A stretch of 64,000 nt of DNA from a virus (IMGVR_UViG_3300045988_130366), one strand, 5' to 3'. Shown: positions 11,140-44,198, numbered from the stretch's first letter. Numbers and translations: made by a program. The notes: a model not told the origin generated them from the letters alone.

Positions 11140-12229
11140 CAAATGTGGGCCAGTGAAAAACTTTTCGCTTAATCATCAAAGCGGGTATAAAATTTTTTGG
11201 TTAGAGATATTATATGTGATATGTACATTCATCATATAATATTGAGAAGAAAAGATTTTATGCTAACGGGGAAGGGTTATTAACTTAATCCCGTGGGAAA
11301 CTTATATTAATCCTTTCTTCTTAATATAATAATTAAGGAGAAATAAAAGTGATAGGTATATATAAAATTACAAACCTTGTAAATGGTAAAACTTATATTG
11401 GACAAAGTAATAATATAGAAAGAAGATTTAAAGAACATCAACAAAAAGGAGAATTGAGTAGAATTCCAGTTGATATTGCAATTAAAAAATATGGAAAAGA
11501 TATGTTTTCTTATGATATAGTTGAAGAATGTAAGTTAGAAGAATTAAATGAAAAAGAAACATATTGGATAAAAAAATATCATACAAAAGAAGATGGATAT
11601 AATTGCAATGACGGTGGGAGTTTTCAATCTTCTGGAGAAAATAATGGTAGAAGTAAATTAACCGAAAAAGATGTTATTTTAATTAGAAAAGCTTATAACA
11701 ATCATAAGAAACAATCTGAAATATATGAATTATTTTCTGATAAAATTTCTTTTGGACATTTCCAAAATGTTTGGCAAGGAAAGGTTTGGAGTAATGTAAT
11801 GCCAGAAGTTTTTACAGAAGAAAATAAAAATTATTATATCTATAAAAATAGTCAAGGACAAAATGGAAAAAATTCTAATCTTACAGATGAAGAAGTTATA
11901 AAAATAAGAAAAAGATATGTTAAAGAATCTGCAAGAGAGATTTATGAAGACTATAAGGATATAATGTCTTATCAAACTTTACAGCAATTATTATGGGGAA
12001 GACATTATTCTCATTTACCAATTTACAAGAAAAAAGAGAAAAAATGGATTAATATTTGAACCTGTATCGACTATCCCCCAGGCCTTTTGGGCGGGGGAGT
12101 AGGGCTGCTATTGATACGCAGCCAGGTTTTAGGAAACGAAGCCTGTTAAAAGCCGAAATGGTTTCCTTGATAAAATAAAATTTATCAAGTAAAAGATAGT
12201 CAGTGCCAATAGTAATATTGGAATAAATG
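11140..12229 (+). mobile_element. group I intron (gyrB intron 1) carrying GIY-YIG homing endonuclease ORF
   Basis: Interrupts DVDG|SHIR of GyrB; 3' core GTATCGACTATCC…CTATTGATACG…AGATAGTCAGTGCCAAT…AAATG ending in omega-G immediately before exon 2. Confidence 0.8.
11349..12059 (+). CDS. GIY-YIG homing endonuclease (intron-encoded, I-TevI-like)
   Basis: GIYKITNLVNGKTYIGQS…ERRFKEH motif; GTG start with AGGAG RBS; two NUMOD-like repeats. Confidence 0.85.
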   Translation: MIGIYKITNLVNGKTYIGQSNNIERRFKEHQQKGELSRIPVDIAIKKYGKDMFSYDIVEECKLEELNEKETYWIKKYHTKEDGYNCNDGGSFQSSGENNGRSKLTEKDVILIRKAYNNHKKQSEIYELFSDKISFGHFQNVWQGKVWSNVMPEVFTEENKNYYIYKNSQGQNGKNSNLTDEEVIKIRKRYVKESAREIYEDYKDIMSYQTLQQLLWGRHYSHLPIYKKKEKKWINI

Positions 12230-12407
12230 TCACATATTAGAGCGTTATTTTTAACCTTTATTTGGAAATTTGCTCCGCAATTAATTGAAGATGGATATAT
12301 TTATGCGGCAGTTCCTCCACTTTATAAAGTTACACAGGGAACTAAAATTACTTATCTAAAAGATGATGCGGCTCTTGAGGAATTTAGAAAGACAGCTAAA
12401 AAGTCTT
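12230..12407 (+). CDS. gyrB: DNA gyrase subunit B, exon 2 (SHIRALFLTF…GYIYAAVPPLYKV…TAKKS)
   Basis: Canonical GyrB PPLYK region; ORF 12227-12433 of the six-frame track = this exon plus read-through into intron 2. Confidence 0.75.
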
Positions 12408-13464
12408 TTGAGCTGGGTCGTATGAAAGGGTAAGAGATAGTCTGGCCCTTATCCACTTTTCCTCTAATCAGAGGGGTTATTATCTTAGATAATAGCTAAC
12501 GAGGCAGTCTTCAAAATATTTTGGGTATTTCAGGAAATCCTGAAATGGATAAAACTTAAATATTCTTGGAGATAATCTCGTGGGAAAAAACTATAAGAGA
12601 TTATCTTACATTTTATTATGTGAGGTATTCAATATGATAGGAATTTATAAGATAACAAACAAAATTAATGGAGATGCTTATATTGGACAAAGCACTCAAA
12701 TAGAAGAAAGATTTATAGAACATAAAAATCCTACAAATTGGGCAAGAGAATCTAATAAAAGTCTTTATAAAGCATTTATTCAATTTGGATTACAAAATTT
12801 TGATTTTTCCGTTTTAGAAGAATGCAAAAAAGAAGAATTAAATGATAAAGAACAATATTGGATTGGATATTATAGTACATATCCTAATCAATATAATATG
12901 ACTCCAGGAGGACAATTTAATGCAGGTGAATGTCATCCAAGTCATAAATTAACTGAAAAGGATGTGATTGATATTAGAACGAGATATAAAAATCACGAAA
13001 GAAAAAAAGACGTTTATTTATTATATGCTCATTTAATTGGGGAATCTGGCTTTCATAAAATTTGGAATGGTTCAACATGGAAAACAATAATGCCAGAAGT
13101 TTATACAAAAGAAAATAAAGATTTTCATGCTCATAATACTTCAAATGTAGGTTCTAAAAATGGAAGGTCTAAATTAACAGAAGAAGATGTTAAAAATATT
13201 CGCTTAAGAAAGAAAAATGGAGAGCAGTTATCTTCCGTTTATAATGATTATTCTGACAAATTAACTTATAAATCTTTTGAAAATGTTTGGTCTTATAGAA
13301 ACTGGAAAAAAATTATAGTTTAAGCCTGTATCGACTATTCCCTTTGTCGGGAAGTAGAAATACTATTGATACGTATTTCAAAAAGGTGGACATGATGAAG
13401 GCAGTTAATACGTTAGCCGGAGTGAAGAAATAGTCAGTACCAATGGTGACATTGGAGTAATACG
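12408..13464 (+). mobile_element. group I intron (gyrB intron 2) carrying GIY-YIG homing endonuclease ORF
   Basis: Splits …KKS|LGEMDP… (GyrB YKGLGEM motif restored on splicing); 3' core GCCTGTATCGACTATTCC…CTATTGATACG…AATAGTCAGTACCAATGG…AATACG omega-G. Confidence 0.7.
12580..13323 (+). CDS. GIY-YIG homing endonuclease (intron-encoded)
   Basis: GIYKITNKINGDAYIGQS…ERFIEHK motif. Confidence 0.85.
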   Translation: MGKNYKRLSYILLCEVFNMIGIYKITNKINGDAYIGQSTQIEERFIEHKNPTNWARESNKSLYKAFIQFGLQNFDFSVLEECKKEELNDKEQYWIGYYSTYPNQYNMTPGGQFNAGECHPSHKLTEKDVIDIRTRYKNHERKKDVYLLYAHLIGESGFHKIWNGSTWKTIMPEVYTKENKDFHAHNTSNVGSKNGRSKLTEEDVKNIRLRKKNGEQLSSVYNDYSDKLTYKSFENVWSYRNWKKIIV

Positions 13465-13652
13465 TAGGCGAGATGGACCCGTCCGAAATGGCTGAAACAG
13501 TTATGAATCCAGAAACCAGAACTCTTAAACAAATATGTATGGAAGATGCAGAAGAAGCTGCTAAAACTTTCATGGGATTGATGGGTGAGTCGGTTGTTTA
13601 TAGAAAGAAATTTATCGAAGAGAATGCATGGAGAGCAAATATTGACGTATAA
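13465..13652 (+). CDS. gyrB: DNA gyrase subunit B, exon 3 (C-terminal LGEMDPSEMAETVMNPETRTL…FIEENAWRANIDV*)
   Basis: Unmistakable GyrB C-terminus; total spliced length 1875 nt = 624 aa. Confidence 0.75.
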
Positions 13653-13748
13653 TGATGCAATGTATCTGGCCGTTGGAGTTGAAGACGGCTGGATACATGT
13701 AACTCCAAAAGTGTGGAAGGAATATTTAAAAGCTAAAGAGGTTATTAA

Positions 13749-14108
13749 ATGGAAGCAAAAATATTTGAATTTGTACCAGAAGAGTCAGAACACTTTGAAT
13801 CCCAATTTTTAAAATGGTATGATGCGGGTAAACCTAAAAATAATTTTAATGAGGCTTATGATTATAGTGCAATAACTCAATTCCTTATATGGGAATATGG
13901 ATTATCAGATGAATCATATGATGAACCTCGTAGATGGAATCAAATTGTAGAAGGAATTGTTTGTATTAATGGACGCTATTTTTCTGTTTGTTACGACAGA
14001 GGTTTAACAGAAATGCAAGAAGATTATTATGACTTTGATGATGATATTACTGAAGTTGAAAAACGCACAGTTTTAAAAGAGGTAACAGAATGGAAGAAAA
14101 AAAGATAA
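13749..14108 (+). CDS. hypothetical protein
   Basis: ORF with RBS AAAGAGG. Confidence 0.45.
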   Translation: MEAKIFEFVPEESEHFESQFLKWYDAGKPKNNFNEAYDYSAITQFLIWEYGLSDESYDEPRRWNQIVEGIVCINGRYFSVCYDRGLTEMQEDYYDFDDDITEVEKRTVLKEVTEWKKKR

Positions 14109-14329
14109 TTGAATTAGCTGGAGATTTTTCTCAGAAGCCAGATATGGCCGCAATTACTAAAATAACTCCTATAAAAGATGGGGACAAAGTAATCTTACAT
14201 TTTGATGCAATGAAATATGATTTAGATATAGATACTGTTGTTGAACAATTTAAACTATGGCAGCAATGTTTTCCACATAATGATGTAATTGGAGATTTGT
14301 GTAATACAGACATTGAAGTAAAGGAGTAA
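14090..14329 (+). CDS. hypothetical protein
   Basis: ORF with RBS AAGAGG. Confidence 0.4.
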   Translation: MEEKKIIELAGDFSQKPDMAAITKITPIKDGDKVILHFDAMKYDLDIDTVVEQFKLWQQCFPHNDVIGDLCNTDIEVKE

Positions 14330-14331
14330 AT

Positions 14332-14778
14332 ATGATATTTTATACAGACGGTTCTGCGAGTCCAAATCCAGGCCCAGGTGGCTTTGGAGTTGTTCAAGTC
14401 GATACAGAAGGTAATATTTTAAGTACATATTCCAGTAGACAGGATAATACGACTAACAATGAACAGGAAATGAAAGCTATTCTTTATGCGGCCTGTCAAG
14501 GAGTATTAGCTAAAGAAGATGTATTAATTTACTCTGATTCTGCATATGCAATTAATACTTTTTCAAACTGGATGTATAGTTGGGAAAGAAATGGATGGAT
14601 TAAAGGAGATGGAAAAGTGCCTGAAAATTTAGAAGTTGTGCAGGCTTTTTTTGAAGTATCTAAAATGATTGAAGTTACTTTTGTAAAAGTAAAAGGACAT
14701 TCTAAAAATCCATTCAATGAGCTGGCAGATAATCTGGCAACTGGCAAGGTTAAACCTGGTAACTATTTGACAATTTAA
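14332..14778 (+). CDS. rnhA: ribonuclease HI
   Basis: FYTDGSASPNPGPGGFGVV… RNase H catalytic motif, DSxY, C-terminal H…ELAD. Confidence 0.85.
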   Translation: MIFYTDGSASPNPGPGGFGVVQVDTEGNILSTYSSRQDNTTNNEQEMKAILYAACQGVLAKEDVLIYSDSAYAINTFSNWMYSWERNGWIKGDGKVPENLEVVQAFFEVSKMIEVTFVKVKGHSKNPFNELADNLATGKVKPGNYLTI

Positions 14779-14802
14779 TTTTTTTATGGTAATATATTAT
14801 AT

Positions 14803-15081
14803 ATGGATAAGAATAAAGAACAGTTAAAAAAACAATTACTACAATTTGTTAAATCAGTTGAAGAACCTATAACAAAAGAAGAATATGATAAATATATGAA
14901 AAAATATCATAAACAAAATCCTCTTTTAAATACTGGTTCTGGTTATTTATATGTTCCATCAGAAGATGTTGTTGTTAGTGCTGATTCAATTTATAATTTT
15001 ATAGAAAAAGTTATAGATGAAAGTTTGATGGATGTAAAAATGCAATATTATAAAGAATTATTTGATAAGGGAGAGTCTTAA
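14803..15081 (+). CDS. hypothetical protein
   Basis: ORF preceded by TATGGTAATAT -10-like element. Confidence 0.4.
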   Translation: MDKNKEQLKKQLLQFVKSVEEPITKEEYDKYMKKYHKQNPLLNTGSGYLYVPSEDVVVSADSIYNFIEKVIDESLMDVKMQYYKELFDKGES

Positions 15082-17459
15082 TGAGTGAGAATATTATTCA
15101 AGTAAATATTAAAGATGAAATTGAACAGAGTTTACTTGATTATGGAATGAGTATCATTTCAGATCGAGCTTTACCTTCAGCAGAAGATGGATTAAAACCT
15201 GTTAATAGACGTATCTTATATGATATGTTTGATAAAGGTTTTATGAATAATAAGAAATTTGTAAAGTGCGCTCAGCCGGTCGGAGATACAATGGGTAGAT
15301 TTCATCCGCATGGTGATAGTTCTATTTATGGTGCATTAGTATGGATGTCACAGGAATGGAATATGAGATATCCACTCATTTCTTGGCATGGGAATAACGG
15401 AAGTCGAGATGGTGATGAACCGGCTGCATACAGATATACAGAATGTAAGCTTTCTAAACTCGGAGAAGAGATGCTTGCTGATATTAAAAAGAATACAGTA
15501 GATTGGATGAATGCTTATACAGATGAAGAGCAAGAACCAGTTTATTTACCTGGCCGCATTCCAAATCTTATCGTGAATGGTACTTCTGGAATTGCGTGGG
15601 CGATGGCTTGTTCATTTGCACCACATAATTTATCAGAAGTTATGGATGCAGCTATTCATCTTTTGGAAAATCCAGAATGCGACATTAGAGAGCTTTTAAA
15701 CTATATTAAAGGTCCAGATTTTCCAACAGGTGGATTACTTATTAATAAAGATGAACTTGAAACAGCTTATCTTACAGGAAAAGGTCGTGCAAGATTAAGA
15801 GGTGAATATACAATCGAATCTTCCAAAAGTGGAGATAGCATTGTTTTTACTTCAATGCCTTATAAGGTTTCAAAGGAGGATTTAATTGTTGAAATTGACA
15901 ACCTTTGCGAACAAGGTGAGATTAATGGCATTACAACGATTCGCGATGAATCAAACCAAAAAGGTGTCAGGTTTGTCATTGAATTGGGAAAAGGAGTGTC
16001 AACAGCTCCAATTATTGCAAAACTTTTTAAGTCCACAAGACTTGAAAGTACGTATTCATTCAACCAAGTTGCACTGGTTGACAAAAAGCCAAGACTTCTT
16101 AATATCAAACAATTATTAGAGAATTATATTGAACATCAAAAAGATGTCCTTTTAAGAAAAACTAAATTTGATATTGAAAAAGTTCAAGCTAAAATTCATA
16201 TTCTTGAAGGATTGCTTATTGCTTTAGAGGATATTGATAATATCATTTCACTCATTAAAAAGTCTTCAAGTGCGGCTGAAGCTAAAGTTGTTCTTATGAA
16301 TAAATATAATCTTAGTGAGGCACAGTCTAAAGCAATCTTAGATATGAAATTATCTCGTTTAGCAAAATTAGAGTCTGTTGAAATAAGGAATGAAAAAGAT
16401 TCTTTATTAATTAAAGAAGGTGAATTAAATCAGATTCTTTTAAATCCAGTTCCAGAAATGAAAAAGAACTTTACAGAGATTAAAACCTCATATGGAGATG
16501 CTCGTAGAACTACAATCACACAGGTAAATATCACAAAAGAAGAAAAAGAGATTGAATATGTAGAACCAGAAAAATGTGTTGTTGTAATGACAGAAGATGG
16601 TTTAATTAAACGTATTCCTTCTACAAGTTTCAGAACTCAGAGAAGGAATGGAAAAGGTGTTAAAACACAGGGTGATGTTGTTAAAACTACTATCCGTACA
16701 AATACTATTGATTCTCTGATGGTATTTACAACAAAAGGAAAAATGTATCGTATCCTTGTAAATGATATTCCAGTAGGTACAAATGTATCTAAAGGTCAGT
16801 CAATTAAATCTTTAATTGCGATGGATATTGATGAAGAACCTAATTTAATTTATTCTATTTATAGAGATACTGATGCGAAGTATTTATTATTTGTAACAAA
16901 GAATGGAATTACAAAGAAAACCTCCTTAGAGGAATATACAAATACAAAGAAAAAGACTGGAATTATTGCTATTAATCTTAAAGAGGATGATACATTAGTA
17001 TCTGTAAATCTTGTTAAAGATGAAGATTTAGTCCTTTTAACCTCTAATGGTATGGGAATTAAGATTAATTCTGGAGAGATTTCAGCTTCTGGTAGAGCAA
17101 CAGCAGGTGTTAAAGGAATCACTTTAAAGAAAGATGATTTTGTGGTTGCAGCATTACCAGTTCGTAATAAGACAGATTACATTGCAATCTTTTCATCTAA
17201 AGGTCTTGGAAAGAAGATTGAAATGGATGAATTAGTTCTTCAGAAACGTGCGGGAAAAGGCTTGATTATTTATAAACCAACAGAAGAAACAGGAACAGTT
17301 ATTTCTGGTGCTCTGGTTGCGGATGAGGATAATATTCTTGTTGTTGGCAAATTAAGTTCAATTTGTATTTCCGCAAAAGATATTCCTCTTGCAAGTAGAA
17401 TTGCAACAGGTAATCAGTTAATTAAAAACGGTGAAATTACTTCTGTGACAAAAATTTAA
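15081..17459 (+). CDS. gyrA: DNA gyrase subunit A (type IIA topoisomerase A subunit)
   Basis: GLKPVNRRILYDM, HPHGDSSIYGALVWMSQEW, active-site tyrosine region AAYRYTE; C-terminal beta-pinwheel repeats. Confidence 0.9.
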   Translation: MSENIIQVNIKDEIEQSLLDYGMSIISDRALPSAEDGLKPVNRRILYDMFDKGFMNNKKFVKCAQPVGDTMGRFHPHGDSSIYGALVWMSQEWNMRYPLISWHGNNGSRDGDEPAAYRYTECKLSKLGEEMLADIKKNTVDWMNAYTDEEQEPVYLPGRIPNLIVNGTSGIAWAMACSFAPHNLSEVMDAAIHLLENPECDIRELLNYIKGPDFPTGGLLINKDELETAYLTGKGRARLRGEYTIESSKSGDSIVFTSMPYKVSKEDLIVEIDNLCEQGEINGITTIRDESNQKGVRFVIELGKGVSTAPIIAKLFKSTRLESTYSFNQVALVDKKPRLLNIKQLLENYIEHQKDVLLRKTKFDIEKVQAKIHILEGLLIALEDIDNIISLIKKSSSAAEAKVVLMNKYNLSEAQSKAILDMKLSRLAKLESVEIRNEKDSLLIKEGELNQILLNPVPEMKKNFTEIKTSYGDARRTTITQVNITKEEKEIEYVEPEKCVVVMTEDGLIKRIPSTSFRTQRRNGKGVKTQGDVVKTTIRTNTIDSLMVFTTKGKMYRILVNDIPVGTNVSKGQSIKSLIAMDIDEEPNLIYSIYRDTDAKYLLFVTKNGITKKTSLEEYTNTKKKTGIIAINLKEDDTLVSVNLVKDEDLVLLTSNGMGIKINSGEISASGRATAGVKGITLKKDDFVVAALPVRNKTDYIAIFSSKGLGKKIEMDELVLQKRAGKGLIIYKPTEETGTVISGALVADEDNILVVGKLSSICISAKDIPLASRIATGNQLIKNGEITSVTKI

Positions 17460-17460
17460 G

Positions 17461-17488
17461 TGGGATTTATTTCCCACTTATCTTTTCC
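17461..17488 (+). terminator. rho-independent terminator
   Basis: GTGGGA-TTTATT-TCCCAC hairpin + T-rich tail. Confidence 0.6.
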
Positions 17489-17505
17489 AAAAGGAGAATA
17501 TATAA

Positions 17506-19446
<1,941 letters not shown>

Positions 19447-19470
19447 TTTAAAAAAAATGTTATAATTAAA
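19447..19470 (+). promoter_or_regulatory. conserved promoter motif AAAAAAATGTTATAAT (extended -10)
   Basis: Identical 16-mer recurs at 22668-22690. Confidence 0.5.
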
Positions 19471-19499
19471 TTGTAATAAAGATAAGGATAGAAAAAAAT

Positions 19500-19694
19500 A
19501 TGAATAAGAAAGAAATCAAGAATTTAGCTAAACAAATCGCAAAAGCTGAATCAACTATTCAGAATTCCACTGATCAAAAGGAAAGAAAATATGCGATGGA
19601 TACAATAATTGCTTTATCCAGTAAGCTCTCCTCATTAGAGGAAATAGAACGTGTCGATGAGATGGTTCAAAAAATTTTAAAAAATAATTCTTGA
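19500..19694 (+). CDS. hypothetical small protein
   Basis: ORF after promoter motif. Confidence 0.4.
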   Translation: MNKKEIKNLAKQIAKAESTIQNSTDQKERKYAMDTIIALSSKLSSLEEIERVDEMVQKILKNNS

Positions 19695-19792
19695 CTTAAA
19701 AATATTTTTTTGATATAATAATTACATAAGCTAAGAGAGCTTAGAAAATTACACAAACAATAAAATTATTTAATTAAAGGAGATTTGTTATT

Positions 19793-20068
19793 ATGGCAAA
19801 AATGAAAGAAAATTCACGTAAAGTATTTGAGTATTTAAAGACTATCGGAGATGCAAAGGTTACAGCAGCAGATGTAGCAGAAGCACTCGGAATTGAGAAG
19901 AAACGTGTAGATGGAATCTTTACTTCCGCTATTCAGAGAAAAGGTCTTGGAGTTCGTACTCCTGCAGAAGTTGAGCTTGAGGACGGAAGTCATAAGGCAG
20001 TTAAGTTCTTGTCTCTTACACCAGCTGGCATGAGCTTCGACCCAGACGCTGAAGATGAAGCTGAGTAA
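19793..20068 (+). CDS. hypothetical protein with acidic C-terminal tail (DPDAEDEAE)
   Basis: ORF with RBS AAAGGAG. Confidence 0.45.
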   Translation: MAKMKENSRKVFEYLKTIGDAKVTAADVAEALGIEKKRVDGIFTSAIQRKGLGVRTPAEVELEDGSHKAVKFLSLTPAGMSFDPDAEDEAE

Positions 20069-20095
20069 TTAAATTATTTTTGTAATATAAATTAA

Positions 20096-20126
20096 AAGAG
20101 ATAAGGTAACACTTATCTCTTTTTTT
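20096..20126 (+). terminator. rho-independent terminator
   Basis: AGAGATAAG-GTAACAC-CTTATCTCT hairpin + T7. Confidence 0.8.
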
Positions 20127-20134
20127 AACAAAAT

Positions 20135-21127: not shown

Positions 21128-21142
21128 AAGGAGAAAATTGTT

Positions 21143-21749: not shown

Positions 21750-21752
21750 AGA

Positions 21753-22649: not shown

Positions 22650-22667
22650 AACAATATTGATTTTTAT

Positions 22668-22690
22668 TTAAAAAAATGTTATAATATACT
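22668..22690 (+). promoter_or_regulatory. conserved promoter motif AAAAAAATGTTATAAT with TTGATT -35
   Basis: Same 16-mer as at 19447; TTGATT 17 nt upstream. Confidence 0.5.
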
Positions 22691-22696
22691 TATAAG

Positions 22697-23080: not shown

Positions 23081-23122
23081 TTAAATAAAAAGAATAAATA
23101 TAATTAAGGAGAATAGAATAAT

Positions 23123-33665: not shown

Positions 33666-33666
33666 T

Positions 33667-34308: not shown

Positions 34309-34356
34309 TATAATATTTATATAATTGAGAATAGTATAGATAGAGGAAGATAATAA

Positions 34357-36881
34357 ATGAGCAAAAAGTGGTTTAATTGTCATAACCATACAGAGTATTC
34401 AAACTTACGTCTTTTGGATTCAACCAATCACCCAAAAGATTTAATCAATAAAGCAATCGAATTAGGACTTAGTGGTATCTGTATAACTGACCATGAGGCC
34501 CTTTGTGCGCACGTTGAAATAAATAAAATTGCAACAGAGTTAAGAGAAACAAATCCTGATTTTGTGATTGGATTAGGAAATGAGATTTATTTAACTGATA
34601 CAAGAAATCATGGTCAGAAATATTATCATTTTATTTTGATTGCTAAAGATGCAATCGGTCATAAAGCGTTAAGAGAGTTAAGTTCTACAGCTTGGTATTA
34701 TTCATATATGGATAGAGGTATGGAAAGAGTTCCAACTTTAAAAGATGAATTAACTGAGATTGTAAGACATTATAAAGGTCATTTAATTGCAACAAGTGCA
34801 TGTATTGGTGGAGAATTATCTTCATGGTCTTTATTATATGCAGAAGCATTAAAGGTAAATGACCAAAAGATGGCAATGGAGTTTCAGAAAAAGATTCAAG
34901 ATTTTATGAATTTTGTTCTTGATTTATTTGGAGATGATTTTTATATTGAATGTGCTCCATCTAATAAAGAAGATCAAATGACTGTAAATTCTCAGTTGTT
35001 TAAAATTGCAACTGCATATAATGTTAAAATGGTTGTTGGAACTGACTCTCATTATTTAACAAAAGAAGATAGAATGGTTCATAAAGCATATCTTAATTCA
35101 AAAGGTGGAGAGCGTGAAGTTGATGACTTTTATGAATTTGCCAGACTTATGGATAGCGATGAAGTGGAAGAATTATTATCTCCATGTTTTCCAGATGGAT
35201 ATGTAGATGTAATTTTTGAAAACACTTTAGATTTACAAAATAAAATTGAATATTATAGTCTTTTTCATAAGCAGGATATTCCATCTGTAGAAGTTAAAGA
35301 TTATCCAAAAGTAAGAGGATTTAAACAATATCCACATTTATCTGCAATGTTAATGGATGATGATATTCAGAATCGTTATTGGGTAAATGAATGTTTAAAT
35401 CAGCTTGAAAAACTTGAAAAAATTAATGATAGACGTTATCTTGATGAGCTTGAAGAAGAAGCACGAGTTAAAAGTATCATTAGTGAAAAACTTGAAACAA
35501 ATATGTTTCGTTATCCAAATACACTTCAGCATTATATTGATATGATTTGGGATTGCGGTTCAATGGTAGGTGCTGGTCGTGGTTCCAGTTGTGCCGCGCT
35601 TAATCATTACCTTATGGGAATTACTCAGTTGGATCCTATTGAATGGGATTTACCTTTCTTCCGTTATCTTAATGAAGAGAGAATTGAGCTTGGTGATATT
35701 GATATTGACATATGCCCGTCTAAACGTCCGGAAATTCTTCGTAAAATTAAAGAAGAGCGTGGAAAGATGTTCTATGATAATATCATGGAATGGGCAAAGA
35801 AAAATCTTGGATGTACTCTTGTAGCAACATTCGGTACAGAAGGAACCAAATCTGCAATTCAGACAGCTTGTAGAGGTTATAGAAGTGAGGATTATCCAGA
35901 AGGAATTGATGTTGATGAAGCTCAGTATATGAGTTCATTAATTCCAGAGGAAAGGGGTTTTTTATGGACAATTAAAGAAGTTGTTTATGGAAATCCAGAA
36001 AAAGGTCGTAAACCTGTTAAGACATTTGTAAATGAAGTAAATAAATATCCAGGTTTATTGGATATTATTGTAGCTATTGAAGGTCTTGTAAACCATAGAG
36101 GCTCTCATGCATCTGGTGTAATTTTATTTGGAGATGACCCATTTGAGCATAGTGCTTTTATGAAAACTCCAAAAGGTGAGATTACTACTCAGTTTGACTT
36201 ACATGATGCAGAGTATATGGGATTAACAAAATATGATTTTCTTGTAACTGAGGTTCAGGATAAGTTGGTTCAAACTATTCAATTACTCCAAGAGGATAAT
36301 GAAATTGAGCCAGAATTAAGTTTGCGGGAAGTCTATGATAAATATTTTCATCCTAATGTTTTACCTTTAAATGATCAAAAGATTTGGGATGCATTGGGTA
36401 AAGTATCTGTTATTAATACTTTCCAGTTTGATTCTCAGGTTGGTGCGCAGGTTGCAAAGAAATTAAAACCTCAGAATGTATTGGAAATGGCGGATGCGAA
36501 TGGTCTAATGAGACTTATGGGCGAAGATGGAGAAGAACGCCCAATGGATAAATATTATCGTTTTAAACAAAACATTCAGTTATGGTATGATGAAATGACA
36601 AAATTTGGTCTTACCAAAGAAGAGCAGAAAACTCTTGAACCTTACTTTAAGAGTTCTTATGGAGTTCCGCCTTCACAGGAACAGTTAATGAGAATGTTGA
36701 TGGATGATAAGATTTGTCACTTCAGTCTTGGAGAAGCAAATGCGGCTCGTAAGATTGTTGGTAAAAAGCAGATGAATAAAATTCCAGCTTTGCATGAAAA
36801 GGTATTGGCACAGGCGGCAAGTGAGAAGCTTGGCCAGTATGTATGGAAATGTGGAGTTGGCCCGCAGATGGGTTATTCATT
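34357..36881 (+). CDS. dnaE: DNA polymerase III alpha (DnaE-type), exon 1 (PHP, palm, fingers up to …QMGYSF)
   Basis: PHP motif CHNHTEYS…ITDHEAL, DnaE palm/fingers similarity, ends in conserved GYxF of the GYGFNKSH region; exact 5' splice site +/- few nt. Confidence 0.75.
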
Positions 36882-38115
36882 TAGCGTTGTGTAAATGGCG
36901 CTTACACACTTAACCACTTATCGGTGGGGTAATTAAAACATTAATATATTTGGCAAATATAGTTTTAATTGCTAACGAGGGTAAAATCTCGTGACAAATT
37001 TCTTTAATAGAGGTATAGTGTTTTTCATTTATACATGAGAACAATAGCCATGTATAAAGGAGAATATTTATGTATTATATTTATAAATTCACAAATAAAA
37101 CAAATGGTAAGATTTATATTGGGCAAACTAATAATATTCAAAAACGAAAAAATGGTCATAGAAGTGATTCTTTTAATGAAAAAAGTTCTGGATATAATTT
37201 ACCATTTCATTCTGCAATAAGAAAATATGGTTGGGATAATTTTAATTTTGATATTCTTGAAGAAATATCAGATGGAGAGTCTCAAGATTATATTGATGAA
37301 AGAGAAATTTTTTTCATTCAATATTATCATTCTTTAAAAGACGAAAATGGATATAATATTTCTATTGGGGGTCAAGGATATAAAAGACAACCCTTAACTT
37401 ATGAAGAAAGATTGAATCTATCTAAGTTATTTAAAAAAGAAGAGATTATTGATATTCAAAATCGTTTAATGAATGATGAAGAATATGATGATATTGAAAA
37501 AATTTATTATCCTAAATTAAAACGAACATTTTTAGTCAATATAAATACTGGAACAAATTATTTTAATGAAAAATTTGATTATCCTTTAAAGAAAAATTCC
37601 AGAAGTCGTTTTTCTCAAAAAGAAATTCGAGAAATAAAAGATAGAATTAAAAGTGGAGAGAAATATAAATCCATTCAAGAAGATTTTAATATTAAATCCG
37701 CAGGATTTTTATCTATGATAAATACTGGAAAATATTTTTATAGTAATCAAGATACATATCCACTTTGTGATAAAGGAAGTAATAAAGCTAAAAATGAAGT
37801 TTGGGTTCAAGGTATTATAAAAGATATCTTAGAAACAGAATTATCATTAAAAGATATTTCTAAAAAATGGAATAAAAGTTACGCTACAGTTAAAAATATT
37901 AACTCTGGTCGTTCTCATAAAAAAGAAAAATATAAATACCCTCTTAGAGATAATAAATAAATCTATTAAAAGAAAAATGTTGTATCGACTATCCTGGGTT
38001 AGACCGGGAGTACTGGAACTATTGATACGTTCTGGGAAATAGTGTGCGGATAAGGGGTATGCCAAAACCTCACTACAACATCCGTAAAAAATAGTCAGTA
38101 ATTTAAAAAATTATG
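36882..38115 (+). mobile_element. group I intron in dnaE carrying GIY-YIG homing endonuclease ORF
   Basis: Shared core TGTATCGACTATCC…CTATTGATACG…AATAGTCAGTAATTT…TTATG omega-G; exon 2 resumes (F)IHALAYSFIGVQTLY matching DnaE [13 protein letters not shown]. Confidence 0.7.
37070..37960 (+). CDS. GIY-YIG homing endonuclease (intron-encoded)
   Basis: YIYKFTNKTNGKIYIGQTNNIQKRKNGH motif. Confidence 0.8.
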   Translation: MYYIYKFTNKTNGKIYIGQTNNIQKRKNGHRSDSFNEKSSGYNLPFHSAIRKYGWDNFNFDILEEISDGESQDYIDEREIFFIQYYHSLKDENGYNISIGGQGYKRQPLTYEERLNLSKLFKKEEIIDIQNRLMNDEEYDDIEKIYYPKLKRTFLVNINTGTNYFNEKFDYPLKKNSRSRFSQKEIREIKDRIKSGEKYKSIQEDFNIKSAGFLSMINTGKYFYSNQDTYPLCDKGSNKAKNEVWVQGIIKDILETELSLKDISKKWNKSYATVKNINSGRSHKKEKYKYPLRDNK

Positions 38116-39511
38116 TATACACGCTTTAGCTTATAGTTTCATTGGTGTTCAAACATTATATATTGCAACAAATTGGAATCCTATTTATTGGGATTGTGCA
38201 TGTTTAATTGTAAACAGTGGTTCACTTGAAGATAATAGTGAGTTAGAGATTGATGAGGATAATGAATCTGAATCTATTTCCGTGAAGAAAACAGCTTCAA
38301 CTGATTATGGAAAAATCGCAAAGGCGATGGGTGAAATTATATCTGCGGGAATTAAAATGAGCCTTGTTGATATAAATAATTCAGATTATGGATTTAAACC
38401 TGATGCTAAAAATAATCAGATTCTTTATGGAATGAAAGGTTTATTGAATGTCAGTGATGCGGTAATTGATGATATTATCAAAAATAGACCTTATATTTCA
38501 CCTAAAGACTTTTTATTAAAAGTGCGTCCAAATAAACAGGCAATGATTTCACTTATTAAAGGTGGAGCATTTGATACAATGATTGACCGCAAGATTTGTA
38601 TGGGTTGGTATATTTGGGAAACTTGTGATAAGAAGAAACGAATTACTTTACAAAACATGGGAGGTTTGATTAAATATAATCTTCTTCCAGAAAAAAATGA
38701 ACAACAGATTATGGCGAGAAGAGTTTATGAATTTAATCGTTATCTAAAATCTGTTTGTAAGATTAAAGGTGATACAACTAATTATCATATAGATGATAGA
38801 GCAATGAATTTTTTGATTGAAATGGAACATGATGATTTATTAGAGGGTTATTCTTTAAATATGAAAGCATGGGACAAAGTATATCAGAAATGGATGGATG
38901 TATTCAGAGAGTGGATTGCGGAAGAAAAAGAACAGATTCTTCAGAACTTAAATGAAAAAATCTTTAAGGATGATTGGGATAAATATGCTCAAGGAACTTT
39001 ATCAGCTTGGGAAATGCAGGCATTATGTTTCTATTACCATGAACATGAATTATCTCATGTTGATACTCAAAGATATGGTTTTGTTGATTTTGATAAGCTG
39101 CCGCAAGAACCTATTGTAGAAAGAACATTTACAAAAGGTGCAAAGCAAATTAATATATTCAAATTGAATAAAATTTGCGGAACTTGTATTGCTAAAAATA
39201 AAACTAAAAGTACAGTAACTATATTGACAACTTCTGGAGTAGTTAATGTTAAATTTAGAAAAGAATATTTCTCATTATTTGATAAGCAGATTTCTGAAAA
39301 ACAAGAAGATGGAACTAAAAAAGTTCGAGAAAAATCTTGGTTCAATCGAGGAAATATGATTATAGTAATGGGCATTAGGTCAGGGGATGATTTCATTTCT
39401 AAGAAATATGCTTCTTCTAATGGACATCAATTATATAAGATTGATAAAATTAATGAAGATGGAAGTTTGGAAATTAGAAGTGATAGATACCAAGGAGAAG
39501 ATGTTTTTTAA
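38116..39511 (+). CDS. dnaE: DNA polymerase III alpha (DnaE-type), exon 2 (C-terminal: HhH, beta-binding region, OB fold)
   Basis: …IHALAYSFIGVQTLYIA… then DINNSDYGFKP / GMKGL (cf. DnaE DINRSD…GLGAIKG). Confidence 0.7.
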
Positions 39512-39550
39512 CATCTTCTCTAATATATCAATAAAAAGGAGAATAAAGAT

Positions 39551-39892
39551 ATGAGTCAAGTAGTAAAAAGAGTTTGTGATTTATGTGGACATGAAATTAC
39601 AGAAAATTTAGACACTGGTAATATTAATTTTAATTATGCAAATTCTATGGGCTATATGTGTAGTCATAACATGGATATTTGTAAAGAGTGTGCCCCAAAG
39701 ATTGTTCCTGCTCTTCACAAAACCTTAACAGATTTGTTTAAATTAAAAGAAAGTGATAATGAGGTTTCTGATTTAGCTACATTCTTCCAAAGAGAAAGTA
39801 TTATGCAGGAAGAGATAGATAAAGCAAATAAGCCAGGTGGAAATACTACACCAGGAGAGTCAACAGATAAAGAGGAAGAAGCAAGCGTATGA
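39551..39892 (+). CDS. hypothetical zinc-ribbon protein
   Basis: CDLCGH…CKEC. Confidence 0.4.
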   Translation: MSQVVKRVCDLCGHEITENLDTGNINFNYANSMGYMCSHNMDICKECAPKIVPALHKTLTDLFKLKESDNEVSDLATFFQRESIMQEEIDKANKPGGNTTPGESTDKEEEASV

Positions 39893-40461
39893 TAGGTTCT
39901 TATAAAATTCTTGCCATTATTGGAGAAGCTGGTAGCGGAAAAGATACTCTTATGCAAGAGGTTTTAAAAGTTAATCATAATCTCCATGAGATAGTTAGTT
40001 TTACAACAAGACCTCCAAGAGAAGGAGAAAAAGACGGAATTAATTATCATTTTGTTTCTGGTGAAGAATTTGCAGAAAAGCTTCTGGCAGGTGAAATGCT
40101 GGAAGCTGCCTGCTTCAATGATTGGTTTTATGGAACTGGTTTTGGCTCATTGCGCTCTGATTGTGTTAATATCGGAGTCTTTAATCCAGAAGGAATTGAT
40201 AGTTTAATGGCTCATAAAAATATTGAGATTGTTGTATATTATGTAACTGCTAAAGATAAGACTCGATTATTGCGGCAATTGAATAGAGAAGAAAATCCAA
40301 ATGTTGATGAAATTATTAGAAGATATAAAGCTGATAAAGATGATTTTGCTGATTTAGATTTTCATTATAATGAAATAGTAAATGAAGATAGAAAAGATAT
40401 GAACTTCAATGTGAAAGTTGTATCTGCTGCGGCACAGCGGTTGGAGAACAGGATTGGATAA
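39889..40461 (+). CDS. guanylate-kinase-family (d)NMP kinase
   Basis: P-loop GEAGSGKDT, …SFTTRPPREGEKDGINYHFVS… guanylate kinase signature. Confidence 0.7.
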   Translation: MIGSYKILAIIGEAGSGKDTLMQEVLKVNHNLHEIVSFTTRPPREGEKDGINYHFVSGEEFAEKLLAGEMLEAACFNDWFYGTGFGSLRSDCVNIGVFNPEGIDSLMAHKNIEIVVYYVTAKDKTRLLRQLNREENPNVDEIIRRYKADKDDFADLDFHYNEIVNEDRKDMNFNVKVVSAAAQRLENRIG

Positions 40462-40520
40462 TTTATCCATCACAAAAACCATATATAGTGTTAAGACTTA
40501 AAAAATTTTACTAAATATAG

Positions 40521-41816
40521 ATGGAGGGATACAATATGTTAGAAGTTCAAAAACGAAATGGTGATATTGTCCCATTTGATAAAGAAAAAATTATTGATGC
40601 AGTAAACAGAGCAATGATTGAAGTAGATAAAATCCTTTATGAGACAGATACTTCAGAAGATATTGCTACTGAAATTGAAGAAATGGCTAAACGCTCTAAG
40701 ACAACTATTTCTGTAGAAACTATTCAAGATTGTGTAGAAGATTTATTAATGCAATCTGAAAGAAGAGATGTTGCAAGAGCGTATATTCGTTATAGATATA
40801 AACAAGAAGCAAAGAGAGAGCATGAGGCAGTTTTTGTTAAAACTTATAGTGAAAAATTGGAAGCCCGCAATGTTCAAAATCAAAATGCTAATGTAGATGA
40901 ACACTCTTTTGGCGGACGTATGGGTGAAGCAAGCTCAGTTATGACAAAGAAATATGCTTTAGATTATATTGTATCTAAAATGTCAAGAGATAATCATTTA
41001 AACAATGAAATTTATATTCACGATTTAGATAGTTATGCTGTTGGAATGCATAATTGTTTGTCATTACCTATAGATGATTTACTTAGAAATGGTTTTAATA
41101 CTCGTCAAACTGATGTTCGTCCTGCTCAATCTGTTAATACAGCTTTTCAGCTTTTGGCAGTATTATTTCAGTTACAATCATTACAGCAGTTTGGAGGAGT
41201 ATCTGCTACTCACTTAGATTGGAGCATGGTTCCTTATGTTCGTAGAAGTTTTTATAAGCATTTCTTAGATGGCATTAAATATTGTCAAAAAGGTCAGATG
41301 CTTGGATTAGCTGGAACTTATGAAGATTTTGATTTATCTAATGCAAAAGAGGCGTGGATTAAAGCTGATGCTTCTATTAATGATGATGTATTTGTTAGAA
41401 ATGAAGCAGCTTATCAATATGCCGTAGATATGACAATAAAAGAAACTTATCAAGCTGTAGAAGGAATGTATCATAATCTTAATACATTACAATCTCGAAG
41501 TGGAAACCAGTTACCTTTTACTTCTATTAACTATGGTACATGTACTTTACCAGAAGGAAGATTAGTAACAGAGGCTTTATTAAATGTATCTATTAAAGGT
41601 ATTGGAAAGCTTCATAAAACTTCTATTTTTCCTTGTGGAATTTTCCAGTGTATGAAAGGAGTCAATCGTGAAGAAGGAGACCCAAATTACGATTTATTTA
41701 AACTCGCATTACGTTCAACCGCCACAAGACTGTACCCAAATTATGCTAATGTCGACTGGTCTGGAAACGCAGGATATGACATCAACGACCCTCGTACCTA
41801 CTTCTCTACAATGGGT
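40521..41816 (+). CDS. nrdD: anaerobic ribonucleoside-triphosphate reductase NrdD, exon 1 (ATP-cone … YFSTMG)
   Basis: ATP-cone VQKRNGDIVPFD, IYIHDLD…HNC, ends at …TMG just before conserved radical-loop Cys (cf. E. coli SPMG|CRSF). Confidence 0.8.
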
Positions 41817-42706
41817 AAGCGAAAACTCAGCCCATTTAAAATCTTTTGAACTGTGCTAACAGGTGTTTATATATTCTAATATATAGGCTAACGGTTAGGT
41901 CTTAATGACTTTGCAGTTTGTTGTTAAGATGAGACCGTGCTAAGATTCATTATAATATTCACACATAGAAGGAGGCTATATGTGGATATATAAAATAACA
42001 AATATTCAAAATAATAAAGTTTATATTGGTCAAACAATACGACCAATAAATCAAAGATTTCATCGGCATTTGAATGATGCTATCAATAATATTTTAGATA
42101 CACACTTTGCCAGAGCAATTAGAAAATATGGTAAAGATAATTTTATCATAGAAGAAATTGATACCGCTCAAACTCAAGATGAATTAAACCAAAAAGAACA
42201 ATATTGGATTAGATTTTATAATTCAGTTGAAGAAGGATATAATGAAACAGATGCAATATCTAAGTGCGGGGGTAATACATATCGTTCTAAAACTGAAGAA
42301 GAGATGGAAATTATCAAAGAAAAAATTCGACAAACAAAAATAGGTACTAAAAACCCTATGGCACGAAAAATTAAACGAACAAACATTATTACTAATGAAG
42401 TAGATATATTTAATACTGTTATTAGTTGTGCTAAAGCTTGTGGAATTAAAAATGGTAAAACATCTATCTCAACAAGATTAAATGGACAAATAAAAAGTCC
42501 TTATAAAAATACTTGGATTTTTGAATATTATAATGAATAAAGTGTATCGACTATCCCTGATGAATGTATGGGAGTAGGGACGGAGATAAGCACCGTCGTT
42601 GTTTTAGGAAACGAAGCAACTGAGAACCGAAGCGGAAGACAACTCTATTTACTTTTAAATAGAATGATAATATAGTCAGTGCTGATGGTGACATCAGATA
42701 AACACG
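41817..42706 (+). mobile_element. group I intron (nrdD intron 1) with GIY-YIG homing endonuclease ORF
   Basis: Core GTGTATCGACTATCC…; 3' end …ATATAGTCAGTGCTGATGG…AACACG omega-G; splicing joins MG|CRTANGYDINGFGQLKDGRGN (cf. MGCRSFLGVWENENGEQIHDGRNN). Confidence 0.75.
41980..42540 (+). CDS. GIY-YIG homing endonuclease (intron-encoded)
   Basis: MWIYKITNIQNNKVYIGQT…RFHRH motif. Confidence 0.8.
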   Translation: MWIYKITNIQNNKVYIGQTIRPINQRFHRHLNDAINNILDTHFARAIRKYGKDNFIIEEIDTAQTQDELNQKEQYWIRFYNSVEEGYNETDAISKCGGNTYRSKTEEEMEIIKEKIRQTKIGTKNPMARKIKRTNIITNEVDIFNTVISCAKACGIKNGKTSISTRLNGQIKSPYKNTWIFEYYNE

Positions 42707-43225
42707 TGCAGAACTGCCAATGGGTACGATATTAACGGTTTCGGTCAGTTAAAAGATGGACGTGGAAATATTTGTCCTGTAACAATTATTTTACCTACAT
42801 TAGCAATGGAAGCTAAACAGAACTTTATGTCTCAATATGCTTTAACTGGCGAAGATGCAAAAGAAGCTTTTGCAGTTGAATATTTCATGACTCTTTTAGA
42901 TGAAAAAATTCATCAGGCAAAAGATATGTTGATTGAACGCTTCGATTGGATTTGTTCTCAGGATGCTTCTGCCGCAGTCTTTATGTATGAGAATGGCACA
43001 ATGAAGGGGTATATTCCAGAGGAAGGAATAAGAAGCGCATTAAAACATGGAACTTTAGCGGTAGGTCAGTTAGGACTCGCTGAGACTCTTCAAATTCTTA
43101 TTGGCACAGACCATACGACTTCAGAAGGAATGAAACTGGCTAAAAGAATTGAACAGTTATTTAAAGATAGATGTGCGGAATTTAAAGAAGAATATAAGCT
43201 TAATTTTGGTGTATATTATACTCCT
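42707..43225 (+). CDS. nrdD: NrdD exon 2 (CRTANGYDING…ILPTLAMEAK…VYYTP)
   Basis: Matches E. coli NrdD DGRNNLGVISLNLPRIALEAK block; ends at …YYTP (cf. LYSTPSENLC). Confidence 0.75.
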
Positions 43226-44198
43226 AAACTTTTCGGATTGGGAGTCGCACAAGTGATTGTGTGAAAAAACAACTCTGTTAAACGGGCAATCGTAATAAGA
43301 TGATAAGAGAGACTAAACCTGTAATAAGGCAAGTTAATCCCGTAGGGTAAATTCATTGGACACAAGTTTTCAGTCGTGTATAATAAAAATTCATATAATA
43401 TAGAAGGAGAGTGAATTTTTTTATGGCACGTAGAAAAATGACAGATAAATTAATTAAAAGAAGTCAAATTAATGAAGAAATACGATTAATTAATGGAAGT
43501 GAAACTGATTATATTTCTTCAAAAGGTAATATTTATAAAGATTATGGAAATGATTTATTTTATCCCAAAGCAAATTTTATAAATAAAAATAATGGATATT
43601 TATATTCCAGTATAACTTATCCAGAAGGACAAAGACAAAGAAGAGTGCATATTTTAGTTGCAGAAGCTTTTTTGCCTAATCCAAATAATTATACAGTAGT
43701 AATGCATAAAGATAATAATAAAGCAAACCCTGAAGTATCTAATCTTGAATGGGGGACTAATTCAAAAAATACTAAAGATGCTTATAAAGATGGTCTTGCT
43801 AAAAATGATAAAAGCTGGGATGATAATCAATCAATTCATATTTGTAGTTTTGATTTACAGGGCAACCTATTAAAGATGTATGGCTCTGTAGGAGAAGCTT
43901 CAAGAGAATTACACGTTACAAAAACAACAATATTAAATCAATGTAATCACAATGTAAAAACAAAACCTCGTTGTGGATATTGGTTTAGATACTTGACTGA
44001 ATACAAAACCAATGGATTTGTTCTCTAACGACTATCGAAAACATAGTTATAAAAGAAATATTTATAATGAAGAAGTGAGTAGAGTAGGATATTATATCCG
44101 AAAGACAGAGCTCTTATTATTTGGTAATAGGATAATAAGATGATAATATAGTCTAATCCCCTTTTTTATGAAATATCGGGAAACCGAGGGTTCGAATG
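43226..44198 (+). mobile_element. group I intron (nrdD intron 2) with HNH-type homing endonuclease ORF
   Basis: 3' end …AATATAGTCTAATCC…GGGTTCGAATG omega-G; joins YYTP|AENLCYK. Confidence 0.7.
43411..44028 (+). CDS. HNH-family homing endonuclease (I-HmuI-like, with AP2-like DNA-binding C-terminus)
   Basis: …VHILVAEAFLPNPNNYTVVMHKDNNKANPEVSNLEWGT… HNH_3-type motif; RBS GAAGGAG. Confidence 0.65.
   Translation: MNFFMARRKMTDKLIKRSQINEEIRLINGSETDYISSKGNIYKDYGNDLFYPKANFINKNNGYLYSSITYPEGQRQRRVHILVAEAFLPNPNNYTVVMHKDNNKANPEVSNLEWGTNSKNTKDAYKDGLAKNDKSWDDNQSIHICSFDLQGNLLKMYGSVGEASRELHVTKTTILNQCNHNVKTKPRCGYWFRYLTEYKTNGFVL

Follow-up and report, generated by a model that had tools for sequence, protein, structure and literature searches.

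Group I introns that are mobile and encode GIY-YIG or HNH homing endonucleases are a known kind of insertion in the DNA-metabolism genes of phages. The Jug jumbo phages of the gut have heavy, variable loads of such introns and fragmented nrdD and polymerase genes (PMC12880540), and in the introns of Bastillevirinae phages the intron clade is decoupled from the nuclease type (PMC11878797). Here, we analyze a 64,000-nucleotide (nt) stretch of DNA from an uncultured virus (IMGVR_UViG_3300045988_130366, "the window"), in which three genes on the + strand, encoding a GyrB-like type II topoisomerase, DnaE and NrdD, are interrupted by five insertions in all (I1 to I5). These five introns belong to the known kinds, i.e., they would be mobile group I introns in a phage's topoisomerase, DnaE and NrdD genes, each with a putative homing endonuclease gene in the P6a loop. 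We consider it very probable that each intron was acquired separately, from related phages and at its cognate site, and was not copied between sites in this genome, with I1-I4 representing one old IA2-like subfamily and I5 representing another.

Joining the exons on either side of each insertion restores unbroken proteins. The topoisomerase (632 aa, with an unbroken spliced translation) is encoded by exon 1 (9631..11139, codons 1-503, ending in ...ADADVDG), exon 2 (12230..12431, codons 504-570) and exon 3 (13465..13652, codon 571 to the stop), which flank I1 (11140..12229, 1090 nt) and I2 (12432..13464, 1033 nt). DnaE, a DnaE-like DNA polymerase III alpha subunit of 1308 residues, is encoded by exons at 34357..36887 and 38116..39511, flanking I3 (36888..38115, 1228 nt). 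NrdD, the anaerobic ribonucleotide reductase (777 residues), is encoded by exon 1 (40521..41816, codons 1-432, ending in ...STMG), exon 2 (42707..43225, codons 433-605) and exon 3 (44199..44717, codon 606 to the stop), flanking I4 (41817..42706, 890 nt) and I5 (43226..44198, 973 nt). All of these features, and all those described below, are on the + strand. Every insertion is preceded by U, and its last base is G (12229, 13464, 38115, 42706 and 44198); the five stretches to which a first-pass annotation of this DNA had assigned a conserved core are the 3′ ends of these insertions. In all five, the P1 guide lies a few bases inside the intron and puts the U before the splice site opposite a G, with the pairs UGGU/GCCA in I1 (11136-11139 with 11149-11152), AAGGGU/GCCCUU in I2, AGCGU/GGCGCU in I3, AUGGGU/GCCCAU in I4 and ACUCCU/GGGAGU in I5. 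Intron-less alleles of relatives confirmed the intron boundaries, with topoisomerase alleles of 1896 nt and nrdD alleles of 2331 nt (L124, L129 and L136; here and below, L-numbers denote database stretches of relatives, i.e., IMG/VR contigs and phage records). They also place the limits of I3 at 36888 and 38115, which corrects its start slightly.

A megablast search of the topoisomerase region against GenBank phages returned no match, and the closest GenBank phage topoisomerase found by tblastn, from human faecal viromes, does not exceed 45% identity, so that neither a cultured relative nor a host was assigned. Much closer relatives were found among viral contigs. Comparison with intron-less relatives, which the first-pass annotation had suggested, demonstrated exact, in-frame absence of the introns in contigs 93-97% identical to the window. 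For example, contig 117476 (L019) contains I1 and exactly lacks I2, with approximately 95-96% identity around the I2 site; contigs 154609, 129191 and 121917 contain none of the five introns, and contig 129978 contains I3 only. I3 and I5 are present and I4 is absent in L127 and L128; L124, L125 and L136 are without I3, I4 and I5; L129 has only I3 among I3-I5; and both I1 and I2 are absent in L204-L208 and L262. I4 is absent in 6 of the 6 close relatives examined, leaving the window as its sole carrier among those examined per site, and we saw no relative with all five introns among those examined.

Introns that occur in more than one genome are less diverged than the DNA around them: I1 in L019 is 99.45% identical with flanks at 93-94.3%, I3 in L127-L129 is 98.3-98.6% identical with flanks at 95.5-97.7%, and I5 in L127 and L128 is 99.1-99.4% identical with flanks at 94.2-97.5%. 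This argues that the introns moved horizontally, and recently, from one genome to another at the cognate site. Both traits of a mobile intron, i.e., presence or absence at a fixed site in close genomes and an intron less diverged than its flanks, are therefore found here.

The cores of I1-I4 are only 55-64% identical to each other, versus 74-88% to cognate-site introns in other phage contigs; the closest cognate-site core is 81% identical for I1 (100% in L019), 88% for I2, 74% for I3 and 85% for I4. Using translation of the sequence downstream, we located at least 27 relatives at nrdD codon 433 (the I4 site), approximately 10 at topoisomerase codon 571 (I2), approximately 8 near topoisomerase codon 504 (I1) and a few near dnaE codon 845 (I3), and ORF-less homologues, i.e., introns without an open reading frame (ORF), are present at the I2 site in L067, L010, L119 and L043. 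Among the relatives examined, an intron at the nrdD codon 605 site of I5 is present elsewhere only in L017, L127 and L128. Each intron would represent a site-specific lineage, entering by endonuclease-driven homing from co-infecting relatives into the cognate intron-less site.

Several side observations concern the wider intron load of these relatives. The contigs 93-97% identical to the window (L124/L208, L125/L262, L136/L205, L129/L207, L127, L128, L019/L211 and L209, from IMG/VR sample 3300045988) contain 0-3 of the five introns, in varied combinations. In L251 and L252, the topoisomerase match breaks at codon 447, which suggests a further intron site in close relatives. In addition to the cuts at codons 433 and 605, the nrdD genes of L005, L012, L018 and L102 have others near codons 170-181, 225 and 320, so that a gene can consist of up to four exons. 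In L018, an 8-kb stretch contains four or more group I introns that Rfam detects or scores close to its threshold.

We consider it reasonably probable that this subfamily changed sites in the distant past, by ectopic homing or by reverse splicing into similar sequences, and that the genome under study collected the long-diverged lineages that resulted. This complements separate acquisition at cognate sites and is no competitor to it. Members are found at nrdD codon 433, at topoisomerase codons ~424, 447, 504 and 571, at dnaE codons ~447, 623 and 845, and at 45 unmatched places. In addition, the I2 lineage (inserted between exon AAAGGGU and UA) and the dnaE intron of L018 (between UAUGGGU and UA) have their first ~26 nt and the guide GCCC in common, and since both target the junction of GGGU and UA, they fit a jump between look-alike targets.

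The first-pass annotation had proposed a different history, in which a single scaffold reached five targets by recent spread or shuffling within the genome and received different endonuclease genes. Such copying would account for the fact that four introns have an exact 12-14-nt J6/7-P7 motif and one helix order in common, for the 15-nt hairpin loop UUUUAGGAAACGAAG present in both I1 and I4, and for the location of I1 and I2, which lie 200 nt apart in one gene and encode GIY-YIG proteins 42% identical to each other. However, the cores are nearer to cognate-site introns elsewhere than to each other, the same sites are filled in many other phages, close relatives contain independent subsets of the introns (and some contain none), identity among the GIY-YIG endonucleases is only 28-42%, I5 has a different scaffold, and the shared motifs are family-wide, occurring in at least 120 contigs. 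Recent spread within this genome is thus very improbable, and similar cores in one genome need not mean intragenomic copying, tempting as that inference is.

The shared motifs themselves divide the five introns into two families. The 15-mer TGTATCGACTATYCC is present in at least 120 IMG/VR viral contig stretches. Within the 64 kb of the window, GTATCGACTATYCC at 0-1 mismatch occurs only at 12064, 13328, 37982 and 42544, i.e., in four of the introns; I5 contains only CGACTATCG, without GTATC. CTATTGATACG is limited to three (I1, I2 and I3), with GGAGATAAGCACC at that place in I4. The GACTAT...ATAGTC pair, which is P7, in keeping with the P7-like pairing that the first-pass annotation had recognized, occurs at exactly five sites in the window and at no other, and ATAGTC, a hairpin and the terminal G are found in 5 of 5 introns. 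We built a covariance model on 93 relatives of the shared core, in which I1, I2, I4 and I3 score 96.2, 95.4, 93.3 and 75.7 bits; as all four are in its seed alignment, these scores show consistency and are no independent test. I5 scores 11.8 bits (E = 1.7), and the rest of the window scores at most 16 bits. The core claimed for all five introns hence holds for I1-I4 (75.7-96.2 bits), with I5 being a different intron type: common to I1-I4 only are TGTATCGACTATYC, P7.1, AGUA and P7.2. The shared "core" would accordingly be two-layered, with a catalytic consensus (P7, AGUA and J8/7) present in both families and in phage T4, and a subfamily signature in I1-I4 only.

As judged from sequence and predicted structure, the five insertions are group I introns of IA2-like architecture, and they are predicted to self-splice. 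P7.1 and P7.2, located between P7 and the P3 3′ strand, which is a trait of subgroup IA2, are present in 5 of 5 introns. Minimum free energy (MFE) folds of the five P7-to-P7′ segments have a common layout, with P7 closing P7.1, P7.2, an optional hairpin and P8, and P3 crosses P7, matching the group I pseudoknot requirement. The P7-P7.1-AGUA stretch of I4, CGACUAUCCCUGAUGAAUGUAUGGGAGUAGGG, shows 97% identity to the T4 nrdD intron, for which the Rfam model RF00028 (Intron_gpI) gives 105 bits. The first-pass annotation had tied its reading to a group I fold, and we observe covariation in P3, P6, P7.1, P7.2 and P9. In a MAFFT alignment of 93 distinct 3′ cores, which were selected on P7, 91.1% of the cells in the proposed helices are paired, versus 71.8% in column shuffles, and the covariation score is 0.476, versus 0.142 when shuffled and a maximum of 0.121 with slid partners. 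Two-sided pair changes occur in P7.1, P7.2, the optional extra hairpin and P9; the paired cells reach 97.8% in P7.1 and 98.4% in P7.2, and 5 of 5 P7.2 pairs are changed on both sides among the 93 relatives.

The helices that involve the 5′ half also show covariation. For P6, 80 of 81 introns have complementary bases at the two pairs that flank the ORF, in 12 combinations. P4 is ACGNN with the exact complement NNCGU, in five variants, a result that is partly circular because the search demanded the complement. In a position-anchored test, P3 has a run of 5 or more pairs in 42 of 47 introns (permuted partners: mean 7.5, maximum 16), with 30 distinct helices; this supersedes an earlier, loose complement search that was too permissive (57 of 81 cognate versus 44 permuted). 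In the nrdD lineage, for example, P3 changes from UCUUUUG/CGGAAGA to UCUCGUG/CGCGAGA, CCUUUUG/CGGAAGG and UUUUUUG/CGAAAAA.

A number of points weigh against our interpretation of these insertions. Rfam gave no match on the window at gathering or E-value thresholds, a silence that in our judgement is due to the ORFs of 560-890 nt that interrupt the cores and to the variant P3 layout. The ORF-less relatives are also under the RF00028 gathering score of 50 bits, with 32.5 bits (E 7e-5) for a relative of I2 (L119) and 23.8 bits (E 0.0016) for a relative of I4 (L017), and 0 of 12 ORF-less subfamily copies in 10 loci passed this threshold; the Rfam alignment marks the P3 columns as non-canonical. 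P7 is invariant in a sample that was chosen on P7, and so receives no covariation support. The P8 pairs are out of register on the MAFFT alignment (41.8% paired) and were dropped from the model; a hairpin at the P8 position is predicted by the MFE fold in each intron. The thermodynamic z-scores of the P7-P7′ segments are modest, at -0.3 to -4.7. With regard to acquisition, the counts from our collection scans of relatives are lower bounds from samples that are not random, and stronger constraint could account for part of the difference in divergence between introns and exons, though the ORF portions are conserved too.

That the insertions are free-standing endonuclease cassettes splitting the genes into separately translated pieces, or inteins, is very improbable. 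Although the window has no Rfam intron, each ORF has its own ribosome-binding site and phage split genes with intervening endonucleases are known (PMC3045599), every insertion starts after a P1-capable U (U-G), ends in G and is precisely absent in frame in relatives. In addition, ~350 nt of non-coding flanks fold into covarying P3, P4, P6, P7.1, P7.2 and P9, and ORF-less 250-330-nt versions occupy the same sites, with the stop codons that follow the exon ends arguing against inteins.

Group I introns of two layouts can be distinguished in the window. The T4/Twort-like layout, i.e., P2 between P1 and P3, and the P3 5′ strand followed by J3/4-P4, is present in I5 (43246-43286) and not in I1-I4, which have no P2. 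In these four, the P3 5′ strand is located right behind P1, and two hairpins (A and B) precede GC-UAA-P4. An optional helix "P3.1" is listed in the literature (PMC3873408), and the inserted hairpins may already be named. The hallmarks of the I1-I4 subfamily (TGTATC subfamily) would be J6/7 UGUAUC, located immediately after a 2-bp P6, the absence of P2, the two extra hairpins between P3 and J3/4, and a contact between hairpin A and L7.2, the loop of P7.2.

In I1, the P3 5′ strand (11158-11165) is followed by hairpin A (11166..11183, P3.1-like), with the loop AAUCAUCA complementary to UUGAU in L7.2, hairpin B (11185-11263) and P4 (11266-11270 with 11290-11294). Its 3′ core (12063..12229) consists of J6/7 UGUAUC, P7 (12069-12074 with 12196-12201), P7.1 (12075-12097), P7.2 (12103-12123, with CUAUUGAUACG, the 9-nt loop together with its closing pair), an extra hairpin (12123-12145), the P3 3′ strand (12155-12164), P8 (12166-12189), P9 (12206-12221) and the terminal G at 12229. 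I2 contains the P3 5′ strand at 12452-12460, hairpin A at 12461-12474, hairpin B at 12476-12496 and P4 at 12499-12503 with 12577-12581; its 3′ core (13327..13464) begins with J6/7 and contains P7 (13333-13338 with 13430-13435), P7.1 (13339-13352), P7.2 (13357-13379), the P3 3′ strand (13381-13390), P8 (13391-13424) and P9 (13440-13455). The first bases of I2 (12432-12445), AAGAGAUAGUCUGG, duplicate the J8/7-P7′ sequence GAAAUAGUCAG and might form an alternative pairing with the P7 5′ strand. This I2-type 5′ end, AAGAGAUAGUCUGG, is also present in L010, L018, L028, L043 and L119, where the host sites are topoisomerase codon 571 and the dnaE GYG site.

In I3, the 5′ half contains the P3 5′ strand (36905-36911), hairpin A (36914-36927, loop UUAUC), hairpin B (36929-36972) and P4 (36975-36979 with 36988-36992), and the 3′ core (37981..38115) contains P7 (37987-37992 with 38091-38096), P7.1 (37993-38008), P7.2 (38013-38035), the P3 3′ strand (38037-38046), P8 (38047-38084) and P9 (38099-38113). 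In I4, P3 is formed by 41842-41848 with 42633-42639; hairpin A (41851-41863), hairpin B (41865-41888) and P4 (41891-41895 with 41934-41938) make up the rest of the 5′ half. The 3′ core of I4 (42543..42706) contains P7 (42549-42554 with 42672-42677), P7.1 (42555-42572), P7.2 (42579-42597, loop AGAUAAGCA), an extra hairpin (42598-42620), P8 (42643-42663) and P9 (42682-42697).

The extra hairpin between P7.2 and P3′ is optional, being present in I1, I4, L002 and 29 of 93 relatives. It has a covarying stem and a nearly invariant 15-nt loop, UUUUAGGAAACGAAG, comes and goes within single site-lineages, and falls inside a stretch that matches Lak megaphage genomes at 81-83%. A candidate pairing of AGGAAAC in this loop with GUUUCCU of the I1 P3′ strand was rejected as chance, as the loop is invariant and P3 differs in I4 and in relatives.

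The L7.2 loop covaries with the loop of hairpin A, the first of the two hairpins between the P3 5′ strand and J3/4. The partner stretches are 11166-11183 with 12109-12119 in I1, 12461-12474 with 13364-13372 in I2, 36914-36927 with 38020-38028 in I3, and 41851-41863 with 42584-42592 in I4. The introns fall into two classes, with six or more compensating variants per class. In one class, the partners are (N)AUC/GAU(A), (N)ACC/GGU(A), GCU/AGC, AUU/AAU, ACU/AGU and GUC/GAC; in the nrdD lineage, where UGUAUC is retained and L7.2 is GAGAUAAGCAC or a variant of it, they are UGCUUA/UAAGCA, CGCCA/UGGCG, UUCUC/GAGAA, UACUA/UAGUA, UGCC/GGCA and UCCA/UGGA. At least 3 of 4 Watson-Crick pairs are possible in 45 of 46 introns, and the longest complementary run averages 3.85, versus 2.94 in permuted pairs (sd 0.08, maximum 3.19); hairpin A was read by eye or left out in several nrdD-lineage members, I3 and L002, in which automatic detection missed it. 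This looks like a kissing-loop that would tie the P7.1-P7.2 extension to the end of P3.

The first-pass annotation had paired GTATC with GATAC, a reading that did not hold up. GUAUC is J6/7 and GAUAC lies in L7.2, and when we checked this candidate helix in an unselected sample of IA2-type cores, 7 introns kept UAUUGRUAC while J6/7 was GUAAC, GUAGA or CUAUC, with no compensation; conversely, 0 of 17 non-GAUA variants of L7.2 are able to pair with the invariant J6/7. Since L7.2 covaries with the hairpin A loop, the CTATTGATACG motif is better explained by the hairpin A contact than by pairing with J6/7. A known counterpart in subgroup IA is the P11 pseudoknot, which pairs the P7 extension with an extended P6 stem (Jaeger, Westhof and Michel 1991; C. 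albicans intron cryo-EM, PMC12088405). Like P11, the contact proposed here would tie the P7.1/P7.2 extension to a second region of the ribozyme by tertiary Watson-Crick pairing; unlike P11, the partner of L7.2 in the I1-I4 family is a hairpin inserted between P3 and J3/4. We found no description of an L7.2/hairpin A contact in the literature, a weak indication that it is new.

I5 is a T4/Herelleviridae-type intron with a canonical P2-P3-J3/4, as its predicted fold indicates, and has only the generic P7 pairing and AGUA in common with I1-I4. It contains P2 (43246-43263), P3 formed by 43273-43278 (CUCUGU) with 44105-44110 (ACAGAG) directly before UAAACGGG, as in T4, P4 (43282-43286 with 43339-43343) and P7 (44030-44035 with 44148-44153), together with a P7.1 that is long and AU-rich and a CGG-GAAA-CCG hairpin inside P9. 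An ORF-less homologue is present at the same nrdD codon in L017, where P3 is CUUCAC/GUGAAG; this intron gave no Rfam detection at E <= 0.01. The P7/P9 DNA of I5 matches 282 records from phages of Staphylococcus, Enterococcus, Bacillus, Listeria and Lactobacillus, with the top identity (87%) in Lactobacillus phage Semele at a spot annotated as an HNH endonuclease; these matches are partial, covering at most 33% of the ORF-less intron. Herelleviridae-type introns often contain HNH/I-HmuI-like ORFs, and I5 resembles them in its canonical P2-P3-J3/4 and its HNH_3 ORF.

In each insertion, a single ORF with a Shine-Dalgarno sequence of its own is located in the P6a loop, 5′ of P7, in agreement with the placement upstream of the core given by the first-pass annotation, and its count of four GIY-YIG and one HNH endonuclease is borne out by Pfam (PF01541, E 2.8e-11 to 7.9e-9; PF13392, E 3.8e-7). 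The GIY-YIG ORFs encode 236 aa in I1 (11349..12059, with an AAGGAG ribosome-binding site; E 2.8e-11), 229 aa in I2 (12634..13323; E 7.9e-9), 296 aa in I3 (37070..37960; E 3.2e-10) and 186 aa in I4 (41980..42540; E 2.4e-10), and score 36-44 bits against a Pfam cut-off of 22.6. The HNH_3 ORF of I5 (43423..44028, 201 aa from ATG, with a GTG at 43411; E 3.8e-7) scores 30 bits, with a cut-off of 24.8. All five are putative nucleases whose activity and specificity are predicted from these domains. The GIY-YIG proteins are 28-42% identical, with 42% between those of I1 and I2, and that of I4 matches the others in the catalytic domain only. The last codons of the I5 ORF, GTT CTC TAA (window 44020-44035), are the conserved P6′/J6/7 sequence, which is also present in the ORF-less L017 intron (~9505-9520), so the 3′ end of this ORF overlaps the core RNA structure.

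A swap of endonuclease type within one scaffold, as claimed by the first-pass annotation, is real and already published, although its own HNH example, I5, is another scaffold. The instance we found is L012, which belongs to the I4 lineage and occupies the same nrdD codon, with an HNH_3/I-HmuI-like ORF in P6a where I4 has GIY-YIG; L031 also has HNH_3. Of the 81 family members with a located 5′ half, 19 are ORF-less with a short P6 (<150 nt), and most other family members contain a GIY-YIG ORF, often frameshifted. The P6 insert is 550-1030 nt long, with a longest ORF of only 30-130 codons, in L013, L016, L028, L032, L040, L044, L053, L056, L071, L093, L097, L101 and others. These short-ORF inserts are apparently frameshifted GIY-YIG remnants, which fits the decay phase of the homing-endonuclease life cycle.

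These findings have consequences for annotation. Three essential genes of replication and nucleotide metabolism look fragmented in this genome and are intact after predicted splicing, and standard tools miss all five introns, as the ORFs split the cores and the subfamily is under the Rfam threshold even when ORF-less. Near-identical genomes that contain from zero to five of these introns are also a natural record of homing that would be ongoing among phages of a gut-type population. What is most interesting here concerns structure, i.e., the non-canonical layout with two hairpins between P3 and J3/4, the covarying loop-loop contact and the escape from the Rfam threshold, and the contact offers a testable structural hypothesis for how the subfamily stabilizes its P7.1-P7.2 domain. 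We tentatively raise the possibility, itself rather doubtful, that I1-I4 represent a widespread, under-detected and possibly undescribed subclass of phage group I introns, in which P2 is replaced by two hairpins and P7.1-P7.2 is clamped by a covarying kissing-loop, not by P11; if so, such introns go unannotated, with RF00028 scoring them below threshold.

Compared with the best-described phage introns, those of T4 nrdD (sunY) and td (IA2, with the GIY-YIG enzymes I-TevII and I-TevI), I1-I4 have in common the order P7-P7.1-AGUA-P7.2-GAAAC-P3′-P8-J8/7-P7′-P9, the GIY-YIG ORFs, and hosts that are genes of nucleotide and DNA metabolism; the ORF of the td intron is also located in P6a. They differ in that the T4 introns have P3 directly before UAAA-P4, J6/7 (C)CCAAC and a 4-nt L7.2 (AAGC/AAGU), whereas I1-I4 have two hairpins between P3 and J3/4, J6/7 UGUAUC and a 9-nt L7.2. 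The T4 nrdD intron, unlike I4, is at another codon and has its ORF downstream of P9, and RF00028 gives 105 bits for T4 versus 24-33 bits for the relatives of I1-I4.

Introns of the same subfamily as I1-I4 are present in Enterococcus phages EF1 and EF5 (in dnaE), in VRE9_3 and in uncultured IMG/VR contigs. For example, the EF1 dnaE intron 2 contains CCUGUAUCGACUAU, an L7.2 of CUAUUGAUACG, the UUUUAGGAAACGAAG hairpin and a GIY-YIG-like ORF in P6a, and its identity to the I1 core is 75% over 163 nt; unlike I3, it is located 5 codons upstream in dnaE, between QMG and YSFS as opposed to between GYSFSV and IHA. The records of Enterococcus phage EF1 (L002 2354-3022, MF001358.1) and VRE9_3 (L003) enter the intron ORF and each piece of dnaE as genes of their own, with no intron feature, and name the intron ORF "hypothetical protein" or "homing endonuclease"; the subfamily core is plain at L002 3001-3155. 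Finally, the Jug jumbo phages (PMC12880540) and Bastillevirinae (PMC11878797) resemble the window in having many group I introns, nrdD and DNA polymerase targets, and an intron content that varies among close relatives. They belong to different phage groups, and, unlike in those cases, the introns here are traced to cognate-site lineages and to intron-less alleles.

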